This document shows positions 3,001 to 6,000 of a stretch of DNA of 40,960 nucleotides, piece after piece; positions within the stretch are counted from its first letter, which is position 1, and each line of letters opens with the position of its first letter. This DNA comes from a virus (taxonomy: Duplodnaviria; Heunggongvirae; Uroviricota; Caudoviricetes): IMG/VR virus record IMGVR_UViG_2534681674_000028, positions 1-40,960 of that record. One strand, 5' to 3'. The position numbers were made by a program.

Positions 3001-6000
3001 CCTGTTTTTATACCCGCCGTACACGGTGTCGTACTGGGTAGCGTATGTATTTTTCCAGTAATACGTCGTGTCACCACAAATCCACGGCACATCTGCAGCA
3101 CTGCCACCATGGCACTGCGCGTTAAACACGGAGAGGTCAGCACGAAACTGTGTCAGCATGGCTGTAAACAGCGCAGGTTGCTGTGCGTGGGTGGCGGCGC
3201 TCATGTCAAACTCTCCCTGCATCCAGCACACCGCCAGCAACACATTTTTCGGGTTCTTCTGTAATGCAGCTTTAGTGCGCGCAATCAGGTCCTGATATAA
3301 CGGTTTACCCACACCCCAGCGCGCCGAATCCTGGCTGGCCCCCGTGTCCGCACTGAATGTCCCCTCCGCGCCCTGGGTAAATGCCGAACCACCACGACAG
3401 CATGGTACCAGCAGGATCCCCGCGTTATTCGGGATATACGGGAGCAGTTTTTTGGCAATATGTAAGCCCTGGCCGACACAGCCGTACTGCCCTTTGCTCA
3501 GGTCTGCCTTCGGATGATTCAGCGTACTCATATCCTGCACATCATGCAGGCAGTGGTCGGCCGGAATAATATCGTTATATCTGCAGGCAGCCCCACCCGG
3601 CGTCACTGTACTGCGGCGCGCCAGCTGTTTAATGCGCGGATCCGGAGCATCGTATGAATCCGGCAGCGGAAGCCCTTCACCGTAAGCCATGGCATTGGAC
3701 TGCCCGGCCAGTACGATGACGTAGTACCAATCCGGCTCAGTTGCACCACTGACCACCACATCACCTTCTGCTGTAATCGCCTGCATCAGGGTATAAGGGG
3801 TTATGGCCACCGGACTACCAAACGGCTGCCAGCCCTCTTTCAGTTTGTGTGTCAGCTTTTCCGCAAGGTCTGACGGCGACGCCGCCCTGACAACATCATA
3901 ATGTTTAAATGTCATTATTCCTCCCGGCCGGGATAGTGTATTAAATCAGATATGGAGTGGGCTGTAGTCCGGAAGCCTGAATGACACACGGGGACTACAG
4001 CCCAAGAAATGAAAAAAGGCCACGCAGTTGCGCAGCCTGATAAACCCTGGTTAAAATCCACACGATAACAACACAACAATATCAGTATCTCATGCTGTTG
4101 CCCGAACCTACTCGGGCGTTTTTTGCATGTAAAAAGGCTCCTGCGATGAGGAGCCTGGATATATGCCTAATCTCTGTATACAGCATGATGCCGGGTGCCT
4201 CCCGGTGAATTCTGCAATGACCAGACAGAATCCGCAACTTGCCTATACAATACGCAACCAAACATCTGTCATTATGCCCCGCCGCCCAGGGGGATTCATC
4301 ATGCAGGATTTTTTTAACAAACGCTCAGCATGTCAGGCAACAGTCAACTACCTGAATTGTGAGGCATTTAACATTTCACTGTCCGGTGTCTTTCCTGTAA
4401 TAAAAAGCCCGCAAAAGAGAGTCAGGGCAGATAAGTGTGGTGTGGCGCGTTGTACTGGATTCGAACCAGCGACCTGGCGATTATGCGTCGCTCGCTCTCA
4501 CCACTGAGCTAAAGGGCCGGGCGCAGGATAATAACGGTACGTAACTAATCCTGCAATATCATCCGTTCTGACTGACTAAATCCTGTACTTCCCTGACCGT
4601 CTGCTCAAAACGTTCAGTCTCCAGCTCAACGCCAGTTGCACGACGCCCCAGCGCCATCGCGGCTTTGACTGTCGAACCCGACCCCATGAAGAAATCTGCA
4701 ACCAGGTCACCCGGACGACTGCTCGCACTGATTATCTGCTGCAGCATTTCTGCCGGTTTTTCGCACGGATGTTTCCCGGGATAGTACTGCACCGGTTTAT
4801 GCGTCCACACATCCGTGTACGGCACCTGCGCCGTCACGCCAAAATCCGCCGCAGATGCTTATATTCACTCTGCAGTTCCGCATACTGCCGGTTCAGTGAA
4901 GTATACGTCTCCAGCAGCTGGTGGTGGGGCTTTTCCAGTTCACCGCGCTGATGCTTCTCTTCTGCCACCCGGGCAAACAGCGCCTGTAATTTCAGATAAT
5001 CGCTTTCGTTCGGTAGCTGCCACTGACTGGCACTGAACCAGTGCGACACCATGTTTTTCTTTCCTGTGGCATCCACTATCTGTTTTGCCGTTATCCCCAG
5101 GGCAGCACGCGCATCACGAAAGTAAGAAATCAGCGGAGCCATCACATGCTGTTTCAGTGCCCTGCCCTTCGCCTCATACCCGGCATCTTTCGGACGATAC
5201 GGCCCCTGATAATGTTCCGCGAACAGAATGCGCTCTGTGGCGGGGAAATACGCCCTCAGGCTTTCCTTGTTGCACCCGTTCCAGCGTCCGGACGGCTTCG
5301 CCCAGATAATATGGTTCAGCACACTGAAGCGTTCACGCATCATGATTTCAATGTCAGATGCCAGGCGATGGCCACAGAACAGGTAAAGACTTCCGGCAGG
5401 TTTCAGCACCCGCCAGAACTGCGCCAGACACTGGTCCAGCCATTTCAGGTAATCCTCATCACCTGTCCACTGGTTATCCCAGCCCTCAGGCTTCACTTTA
5501 AAGTACGGCGGGTCCGTGACTATCAGGTCAACAGAATTTTCGGGTAACGACCGGATAAATTCCAGGCAGTCGGCGTTGATTAACTCACAACTGGATATTT
5601 TTACAGTATTAAACATGGATCATTAAGCCTGTCTCTGATAGGCTCATACCGCTTTTGCGCAAAGCAGATGGGCCTGAGGTTTGCTTGTGACCCCAAGCAT
5701 GAGCAGATGGCTGGTGAGTGCCCCTAACACCCACCAGCCGCCCATTTACCACAAATAAAAAAGCCTTCAGGACTGAAGGCGTCTGTAACAACCAAACTGA
5801 TAGTCTGCCAGACCCGCCATAACAAGCTGGGTCAGTATTAGCTGGCAGCGTTCGCGTGAAAGGTACGTATTCTGTGCAATCTCCCCGACTGTCGCCGGTT
5901 CGGTAACACTTAATTCATTAAAAACCACTCTGGCGGTTTCTGTCATATCCTGCTGTTTCAGCATGTCTTTTTCCCTTTTCCGGTTAACGTGACACACCAA

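Follow-up and report, generated by a model that had tools for sequence, protein, structure and literature searches.

Lambdoid and Stx phages usually carry a cluster of three tRNA genes, ileZ (tRNA-Ile2, CAU), argN (tRNA-Arg, UCG), and argO (tRNA-Arg, UCU), downstream of Q and PR'. The supply of tRNAs for rare codons (AUA, AGA/AGG, and CGA) is thought to support the translation of late genes and toxin. Hybrid genes that arise by unequal recombination of tandem or neighbouring tRNA genes are also known, for example, at the tyrT duplicate locus of E. coli. In Lys19259Vzw, two tRNA-Arg and one tRNA-'Met' lie next to stx2a (PMC7946995). The function of the anti-sRNA AgvB and its position at the moron site have been described (Tree et al. 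2014, PMC4104026).

Here, we analysed a window of 40,960 nucleotides, the whole stretch of DNA taken from the IMG/VR record IMGVR_UViG_2534681674_000028. A preliminary description had read one element of this window as a tRNA-Ile2-like pseudo-tRNA (ileZ type, anticodon CAU) with a non-complementary 3' acceptor strand. With a probability of roughly 0.88, the element is a dead ileZ'-'argO fusion, a deletion product of the tRNA cluster in a toxin-less prophage of the Stx type. Table 1 lists the features of the locus.

Table 1. Position of the ileZ'-'argO chimera, its parts, and the neighbouring features in the window
Feature	Position	Strand	Remarks
Chimeric pseudo-tRNA ileZ'-'argO, 76 nt	4443..4518	-	Anticodon CAU at 4485-4483; encoded GCCA end at 4446-4443
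ileZ-derived part, tRNA positions 1-49	4470..4518	-	5' acceptor strand, D arm, anticodon arm, variable loop, first T-stem base
U33-to-G substitution in the anticodon loop, ACTCATAA to ACGCATAA	4486	-	Sole difference from ileZ in positions 1-49
Crossover interval CTGGTTC, positions 50-56	4463..4469	-	Common to the ileZ and argO T arms; between the last ileZ-specific base (49) and the first argO-specific base (57)
argO-derived part, positions 57-76	4443..4462	-	Rest of T loop, 3' T stem, 3' acceptor ACAACGC, GCCA
Spacer from tRNA slot to STnc100, 109 nt	4334..4442	-	Position of stxAB in Stx phages; no coding remnant
STnc100-family sRNA gene	4125..4333	-	Rfam RF02076, 175.6 bits, full length; direction of late transcription
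AgvB anti-sRNA gene (anti-GcvB)	4063..4124	+	Rfam RF02702, 92.5 bits, full length; CACAACA present; convergent with STnc100
N6/N4 DNA methyltransferase gene	4559..5616	-	Upstream of the chimera; Pfam PF01555 on both halves; split by a 1-bp deletion at 4845
Antiterminator Q gene	6191..7012	-	Pfam PF03589, E = 1e-49
nanS-p-type sialate O-acetylesterase gene (DUF1737 + SASA + DUF6645)	2066..3915	-	Pfam; split by a 1-bp deletion at 2682

Structure of the tRNA-like element

The coordinates 4443-4518 given for the element in the preliminary description proved exact, and its strand was refined to minus; in this reading, G1 corresponds to 4518 and the terminal A of GCCA to 4443. The Rfam tRNA model RF00005 matched 4453-4512(-) with 37.3 bits, more than its gathering score (29), at E = 2e-4 for the whole window and E = 9.6e-7 when the local 201 nt were searched. 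The alignment comprises only positions 7-64 of the 71 of the model, that is, the D, anticodon, and T arms, all aligned by the covariance model, without the acceptor stem. The sole non-standard pair in these arms, 27-43, is also found in intact ileZ, and the T stem holds a G49-U65 wobble. The CAU anticodon and the ileZ-type body are those of tRNA-Ile2, in which lysidine modification makes CAU read AUA.

The two acceptor strands, GGCCCTT and ACAACGC, form two of seven pairs (G1-C72 and U7-A66), and the count is seven of seven in each of the intact phage genes ileZ, argN, and argO. An alternative 5' strand, GCGTTGT, complementary to ACAACGC, was not found within 200 nt upstream or downstream of the chimera. 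ARAGORN returned no tRNA genes in the window, nor any tRNA in three other genomes with the identical 76-mer; it was positive for all three genes of the phages Lahn2 and phi296. The intact genes were matched end to end by the Rfam model (72.5 bits for ileZ, 70.1 for argO, and 53.6 for argN). The pseudo-tRNA reading is therefore upheld by the negative ARAGORN result, the Rfam match restricted to the core, and the acceptor pairing; neither ARAGORN nor the covariance model returned a complete tRNA with a paired acceptor stem.

The minimum free energy was -24.6 kcal/mol for the chimera (z = -0.97) and -33.5 kcal/mol for ileZ (z = -4.0). Thermodynamic folding of the 76-mer and of 116 nt with flanks (z = +0.56) yielded neither an acceptor helix nor a stable alternative, a test of limited value because the real tRNAs also lack a cloverleaf as their minimum free energy structure. 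The acceptor pairs C4-G69 and C5-G68 have been reported as TilS determinants of tRNA-Ile2; in the chimera, pairs 4-69 and 5-68 are both C-A. U33 is near-universal in tRNAs, and the chimera has G at 4486, where intact ileZ has T. The promoter scan gave no convincing promoter for the chimera itself.

Parentage and the deleted segment

Positions 1-49 of the chimera agree with ileZ of Lahn2 in 48 of 49 bases, and positions 57-76 agree with argO of the same phage in 20 of 20, differing from ileZ at eight. This likeness to both genes is far beyond chance. The G at position 49 is ileZ-specific, argO having A. A three-way alignment with Lahn2 and phi296 opens a clean gap of 174-175 bp between the ileZ-specific and the argO-specific bases. 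The 175 bp missing from the chimera run from the 3' end of ileZ through the whole of argN and take in most of argO; when these were sought elsewhere in the window (translocation versus loss), only a chance 12-mer was found. The ileZ and argO T arms form a direct repeat with a spacing of 175 bp and agree in 18 of 20 bases, GGTC[G/A]CTGGTTC[A/G]AATCCAG. Alignment to phages with the ileZ-argN-argO cluster thus defines the deletion, argN included, and refines the earlier account of the 3' acceptor strand, which is not a random sequence but the 3' end of argO.

Late-region neighbourhood

According to Pfam and Rfam, the gene order on the minus strand is Q, N6/N4 methylase, tRNA slot, sRNAs, nanS-p, and holin. 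Terminator-like hairpins were located after the Q gene at 6108-6093(-), at 4156-4135 for STnc100, and at 4099-4118 for AgvB; judged by sequence and structure scores, both sRNA genes remain intact. The methyltransferase and nanS-p-type genes are intact in relatives, with 1059 and 1851 bp, respectively. The window carries several isolated 1-bp deletions compared with a 99%-identical relative, among them those at 6079, 5696, 4845, and 2682, and its sequence quality is uncertain. The integrase is encoded at 24080-25210, with an ompW fragment beyond.

From STnc100 through nanS-p, window positions 4376-2026 share 95.9% identity with the sequence that follows stx1B in an Stx1a phage. In the Stx1a phage L006, stx1AB is followed by STnc100 from 79 nt after stx1B. 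A tblastn search with Stx1A/B over the window gave nothing significant (best E 0.17), and stxA and stxB are not present between the tRNA slot and nanS-p. By gene order and homology, the late region is of the Stx-phage type, which, with the identity to the Stx1a phage and the lack of an Stx1A/B match, sustains the proposal of an Stx-phage late layout without toxin genes. As to the gap of 3916-4442 after the element, the claim that it lacks toxin genes stands, but the gap, of 527 bp, is not empty, as it holds STnc100 and AgvB. Since stx1AB is directly upstream of STnc100 in the Stx1 phage, it is the 109-nt spacer that corresponds to the actual stx slot.

Distribution and annotation in E. coli genomes

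The exact junction occurs in 162 of the 5,426 complete E. coli genomes (~3%), in 186 copies that are all 100% identical and all chromosomal. The carriers include the serotypes O157:H7, O111, O145, and O121 and the reference EHEC strains EC4115, TW14359, and O111:H- 11128; Sakai is not among the 60 carriers listed out of the 162. The chimera is absent from 50,697 deposited phage genomes. The 76-mer was found in at least three flank combinations, and in an ungapped walk, the flanks of the copies diverge 0-3 nt outside its ends. Intact ileZ is redundant in carrier genomes, occupying, for instance, nine places in PV15-279. All 186 chimera copies have G33 and none has U33; no intact ileZ with G33 exists among the 5,426 genomes, the best match being 98.3%. 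The linkage of G33 to every chimera copy is compatible with a constraint that was relaxed once the gene had been inactivated.

In every carrier genome inspected, RefSeq/PGAP places a 71-nt 'tRNA-Met' at the chimera without a pseudo flag (ECH74115_RS33745 in EC4115 and ECO111_RS33710 in O111:H- 11128). The feature corresponds to chimera positions 6-76, a 5'-truncated call by the tRNAscan-SE of PGAP; the first five bases are missing, and hence it has no paired acceptor stem. From this acceptance, at least one tRNA caller scores the chimera above its cut-off. Intact ileZ copies are annotated as tRNA-Ile (anticodon cat) in Sakai and RefSeq.

Alternative explanations

Taken at its word, the RefSeq label would make the chimera an unusual but working gene for tRNA-Met or tRNA-Ile. 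The unflagged call in every carrier inspected, an Rfam score above the gathering score, and the encoded CCA end argue for such a gene; the 2/7 acceptor pairs with no GCGTTGT within 200 nt, the rejection by ARAGORN, the RefSeq feature devoid of its first five bases, G33 instead of U33, a fold no better than shuffled sequences with or without flanks, and a 3' strand that is demonstrably that of argO make it very improbable. Acceptance by RefSeq/PGAP nevertheless counts against the dead-fusion view, as does the perfect conservation of 76 nt whose flanks diverge within 0-3 nt, which is readable as purifying selection. The identity of 186/186 copies, the strict linkage of G33 to the chimera, and the position in a Q-dependent late transcription unit beside active sRNA genes would suit an expressed chimera kept as a non-decoding tRNA-like RNA (such as a processing signal within late transcripts, a decoy for some enzyme or nuclease that binds tRNA, or a precursor of tRNA-derived fragments), with G33 selected. 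We regard this as improbable. The parental tRNAs are near-invariant across divergent phages, so identical copies are expected after a recent single origin and recombination; moreover, the copies show no covariation and no independent variant, no stable alternative fold was obtained, and the absence from the deposited phage genomes argues against a benefit to the phage. It is likewise quite improbable that the chimera with G33 is not inert because its late-operon transcript is kept as a tRNA-like RNA, for example, to act as a decoy for anticodon nucleases or enzymes that modify tRNAs or as a processing or stability element for the adjacent sRNA module; if true, this would explain both why conservation is perfect although the flanks are of at least three kinds and why G33 is strictly linked to the deletion.

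Prophages often integrate in tRNA genes, duplicating part of them. A recent preprint takes tRNA matches near these sRNAs as integration hot spots, and the chimera could accordingly be seen as what remains of an attachment site (attL/attR) in a tRNA gene. However, it is internal to the prophage, with the methylase gene on one side and nanS-p on the other, ~20 kb from the integrase/ompW junction at ~24-25.4 kb, and it aligns base for base with phage-borne ileZ, argO, leader, and trailer. The attachment-site fragment was rejected on this internal position, away from the prophage end, and on the alignment, and its probability is next to nil. A tRNA-model match beside the STnc100/AgvB/Pas sRNA loci therefore need not mark an integration site; it can stem from a tRNA gene carried by the phage or from what is left of one. 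An assembly artefact, with the repeat collapsed between the ileZ and argO T arms, might be suspected from the isolated 1-bp deletions of the window, but the repeat spans just 20 nt, much less than a read, and 162 complete genomes, sequenced independently in many laboratories and covering many serotypes, share exactly this junction. This recurrence in independent assemblies refutes the artefact, which we consider to have practically no likelihood.

Proposed origin and implications

For the dead fusion, the ancestor would have been the usual lambdoid/Stx-phage cluster. An exchange inside the central CTGGTTC would have joined ileZ positions 1-49 to argO positions 57-76, with the loss of argN and of the 3' end of ileZ, only the last quarter of argO being left; the route may have been unequal crossing-over, replication slippage, or single-strand annealing. 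The product would have kept the three internal arms, with the 5' acceptor strand of ileZ facing the 3' strand of argO at two of seven pairs. RNase P would presumably be unable to mature the chimera properly and TilS to modify it, and it would not be aminoacylated; from structure alone, we infer that it is non-functional. A single origin is most likely, after which the chimera would have spread among EHEC/STEC prophages by recombination anchored on the conserved tRNA sequence.

The chimera is a recombination scar and a case of ordinary decay, an event of a kind already known that involves no new mechanism. The literature on ileZ/argN/argO and on chimeric tRNAs and prophages, with thin coverage of the older Stx-phage papers, does not describe the fusion. 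With the cluster genes fused, the prophage lost its supply of rare-codon tRNAs at the tRNA slot, and the chimera marks prophages without that supply. The junction does not vary and offers a handy 61-nt marker with which recombination among EHEC lambdoid prophages can be traced. The chief value of the finding lies in annotation correction and bookkeeping.

Comparison with known systems

The RefSeq tRNA-Met feature has the same sequence as the chimera, but its label implies a working methionine tRNA, whereas the chimera originates from tRNA-Ile2 and tRNA-Arg and has no acceptor stem. The label makes tRNA counts too high and gives the wrong isotype, the parents being Ile2 and Arg.

The ileZ-argN-argO cluster of Stx/lambdoid phages (Lahn2, AM072972; phi296, PV189400) occupies the same slot, which comes after Q and precedes both the STnc100/anti-sRNA pair and nanS-p, and has the same leader and trailer as the chimera. 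It consists of three functional genes, whereas one fused, unpaired relic is left here, with 175 bp fewer and U33 changed to G. The cluster has also decayed in other ways, as in Sakai Sp10 with its scrambled argN. The moron region of that prophage, the home of AgvB1, comprises ileZ4, scrambled argN, argO4, a TerB-like gene, STnc100, and AgvB1, and the chimera is absent from it. It resembles our locus in the convergent AgvB/STnc100 pair (96.5 and 145.8 bits) and in a partly decayed tRNA slot, and its type of leader and trailer is found in some chimera carriers (L011 and L013). It differs in that ileZ4 and argO4 are intact, only argN being lost, by scrambling and not by fusion, and in the extra TerB-like gene.

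The chimera is alike to hybrid tRNA genes of the tyrT type, in which short direct repeats within tRNA genes recombine, the interval is deleted, and a fused gene is left. Fusions of isoacceptors stay functional, whereas the partners of the chimera serve different amino acids; since the acceptor stems of ileZ and argO are unrelated, their fusion product is unable to fold.

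Origin of the chimeric pseudo-tRNA

To place the tRNA-like element (hereafter the chimera), window 3900-4620 was submitted to megablast against 50,697 phage records. The matches were phages with annotated ileZ, argN, and argO, each in two pieces covering 504 bp of phage versus 337 bp of query. The window was also aligned with phage phi296 (PV189400) and phage Lahn2 (AM072972), in which the three genes are annotated. The leader and tRNA positions 1-49 follow ileZ up to a clean gap, after which the alignment restarts within the argO T loop and runs on through the argO 3' end and trailer. 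Forty-eight of the 49 bases are those of ileZ, the sole mismatch being T33 to G (window 4486), and positions 57 (G) through 76 are argO-specific (20/20). As the G at position 49 is specific to ileZ and position 57 to argO, the exchange fell within CTGGTTC (positions 50-56, window 4469-4463), which is common to both T arms and lies inside a 20-nt direct repeat with 18/20 matching bases. Compared with Lahn2, exactly 175 bp are absent, comprising the ileZ 3' end, the whole argN, and argO as far as its base 57; this segment was not relocated elsewhere in the window.

The chimera is thus a fusion of ileZ and argO through loss of the interval between their T arms. The alignment, proposed as a check in the preliminary description, settles this origin and defines the deletion.

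Sequence, model scores, and fold

The chimera reads GGCCCTTTAGCTCAGTGGTGAGAGCGAGCGACGCATAATCGCCAGGTCGCTGGTTCGAATCCAGTACAACGCGCCA on the minus strand of window 4443-4518. The Rfam tRNA model matched 4453-4512(-) with 37.3 bits (gathering score 29), but locally (model positions 7-64 of 71), including the D arm, CAU anticodon arm, variable loop, and T arm and leaving out the acceptor stem. Over all 40,960 bases of the window, ARAGORN found no tRNA, whereas it detected ileZ, argN, and argO, which Rfam matched end to end with 72.5, 53.6, and 70.1 bits, respectively. By direct count, only 2/7 standard pairs form between GGCCCTT and ACAACGC, against 7/7 in each parent. The ACAACGC strand is the proper partner of argO GCGTTGT, not of ileZ GGCCCTT, and no alternative GCGTTGT 5' strand occurs near the chimera. 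The minimum free energy was -24.6 kcal/mol (z = -0.97), not better than shuffled sequence, compared with -33.5 kcal/mol (z = -4.0) for ileZ. The chimera is left without U33 and unable to form an acceptor stem.

The preliminary description had reported a non-complementary 3' acceptor strand and proposed tRNA-scanning and covariance-model searches, and both searches bear it out. Its coordinates also stand; the strand, which it left unstated, is minus, as for late transcription.

Gene neighborhood and the stx slot

The gene order was read in phage orientation, using Pfam for proteins and Rfam for RNAs.

Features of the window, with the corresponding RefSeq annotation in sampled E. coli carriers
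Feature	Position	Strand	Remark
RusA	7383-7009	-	
Q antiterminator	7012-6191	-	terminator-like hairpin after gene, 6108-6093
Small ORF	between Q and methyltransferase	-	
N6/N4 DNA methyltransferase	5616-4559	-	broken by 1-bp deletion at 4845
Chimera	4518-4443	-	
Spacer	4442-4334	-	109 nt
STnc100-family sRNA	4333-4125	-	Rfam 175.6 bits
AgvB (anti-GcvB sRNA)	4063-4124	+	Rfam 92.5 bits; convergent with STnc100; CACAACA motif
nanS-p-type esterase	3915-2066	-	broken at 2682
Holin	1962-1570	-	
DUF1327	1565-981	-	
IS3-family copy 1	~9900-11200	-	
IS3-family copy 2	26657-27967	+	
IS3-family copy 3	30570-31880	+	
DicF antisense sRNA	20635-20686	+	75 bits
dicB-like gene	~20860-21050		
Prophage integrase	24080-25210	+	
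nleF	28971-29540	-	
nleH1-2	29606-30526	-	
nleA	33652-34974	+	apparently intact; frameshifted in relative
RefSeq "tRNA-Met"	= window 4513-4443	-	L003:5988-6058; L004:3988-4058; L005:5090-5160; L009-L013:2488-2558

The gap previously described downstream of the chimera measures 527 bp but is not an empty stretch, being filled by STnc100 and AgvB, whose terminator hairpins (4156-4135, minus strand; 4099-4118, plus strand) stand back to back. The same arrangement has been described before, with convergent sRNA pairs occupying the moron insertion site 3' of PR' and AgvB acting as an antagonist of GcvB (Tree et al. 2014, PMC4104026). In a Stx1a phage, stx1AB is directly followed by full-length STnc100, a convergent AgvB-like gene, and yjhS/nanS-p, and window 4376-2026 is 95.9% identical to the stretch downstream of stx1AB. 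Because stx1AB lies directly upstream of STnc100 there, the stx slot of the window corresponds to the 109-nt spacer. A tblastn search of the whole window revealed nothing resembling an stx coding sequence (best E-value 0.17). Gene order, identity, and this absence agree with the earlier proposal of a Stx-phage late architecture without toxin genes.

The trailer just 3' of the CCA end (window 4438-4442, minus strand) is CACCACACTTAT, a 5-nt CACAC repeat expansion right after the tRNA end; in the alternative trailer, as in that of the Sakai Sp10 type, the sequence is CACTTAT. The tRNA-operon terminator hairpin downstream of the chimera is weaker (ACTCTC...GCGGGC versus GCTCGC...GCGGGC).

Other features of the window

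Compared with the 99%-identical strain 95-3192, isolated 1-bp deletions outside homopolymers occur at 6079, 5696, 4845, and 2682, in addition to a small-indel cluster at 2039-2059. The methyltransferase and nanS-p are both intact in relatives, and the 1-bp deletions may represent real pseudogenisation or assembly error. The three IS3-family copies each carry an ALIL frameshift pseudoknot (116-121 bits), and copies 2 and 3 each correspond to an insertion of exactly 1311 bp when the window is compared with strain 2013C_3653. In the early region, DicF lies just upstream of the dicB-like gene, an arrangement resembling Qin-type immunity regions. The integrase is followed by an ompW fragment (region 24080-25400), past which lies a T3SS effector island (28971-34974); the espM1/nleG segment of a relative (L007:22719-27319) is missing from the window.

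Distribution among genomes

The 61-65-nt junction was detected in 162 of 5,426 complete E. coli genomes, including O157:H7 EC4115, TW14359, and SS17, O111:H- 11128, O145:H28 RM13516, and O121:H19 16-9255. The 186 copies, at most two per genome, were all chromosomal and 100% identical, and the 50,697 deposited phage records contained none. None of the 186 had U33, and no intact ileZ in the 5,426 genomes had G33 (synthetic ileZ-G33 query, best match 98.3%). The ileZ-type genes are common and redundant, occurring in about 3,000 genomes at up to 12 places per genome, with nine places in the carrier PV15-279.

The exact 76-mer was present in all eight sampled carriers, in at least three flank combinations: a methylase-type leader with the window-type trailer, the same leader with the alternative trailer, and the alternative trailer behind a DUF1133-Q (Sakai Sp10-type) leader. 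Divergence between flanks sets in 0-3 nt beyond the 76-mer ends. Strain 2013C_3653, a close relative of the early region of the window, retains the Ile-Arg-Arg trio intact downstream of Q; the module with the chimera is therefore a mosaic replacement.

Proposed mechanism and loss of function

The exchange could have proceeded by unequal crossing-over, slippage, or single-strand annealing at the 7-nt identical core of the 18/20 repeat, perhaps aided by phage-encoded recombination functions. From established tRNA biology, a transcript devoid of the acceptor helix would be unsuited to RNase P cleavage, recognition of its CCA end, or charging by aminoacyl-tRNA synthetases. Moreover, C4-G69 and C5-G68, TilS determinants of tRNA-Ile2, are both C-A in the chimera; with the helix missing as well, it would therefore be a relic. 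The prophage would no longer obtain AUA-, CGA/CGG-, and AGA/AGG-reading tRNAs from this slot.

The constancy of the 76-mer among changing flanks, together with the linkage of G33 to the deletion, may reflect a single origin with short-homology recombination, or selection. Because that linkage is absolute, a single origin is favored, probably followed by spread through recombination or gene conversion anchored in conserved tRNA sequence. Recurrent deletion or selection for G33 could instead account for the pattern. That the perfectly conserved G33 chimera is a functional tRNA-like RNA seems very improbable.

Annotation and comparison with known systems

In every carrier inspected, RefSeq/PGAP lists a 71-nt, non-pseudo "tRNA-Met" that spans chimera positions 6-76, whereas intact ileZ copies are labeled tRNA-Ile. 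In the case of the chimera, this is probably a mis-annotation repeated systematically throughout the 162 carrier genomes. With neither a paired acceptor stem nor U33, the chimera falls outside the set of functional tRNAs; its practical relevance concerns annotation and prophage typing. Our search, which covered the older Stx-phage literature thinly, found no published description of an ileZ-argO fusion. A 2026 preprint on Pas/STnc100 sRNAs takes nearby tRNA matches as integration hot spots; however, the matches at this locus come from tRNA genes carried by the phage or from what remains of them.

The process is familiar, that is, neighboring tRNA genes fused via short-repeat recombination during prophage decay, and the chimera is a fresh instance. 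Among known systems, the chimera comes closest to the ileZ-argN-argO cluster found in Stx and related lambdoid phages and is a decayed derivative of that cluster; next to stx2a, the trio is listed as "two tRNA-Arg and one tRNA-Met" (PMC7946995). Sakai Sp10, which bears AgvB1 (supplement of PMC4104026), represents another decay state of the same cluster, with ileZ4 and argO4 intact around a scrambled argN (L008:4782-4958) that Rfam does not detect as a tRNA, and with argO4 differing from Lahn2 argO by a compensatory C-to-G/G-to-C T-stem change and one loop change.
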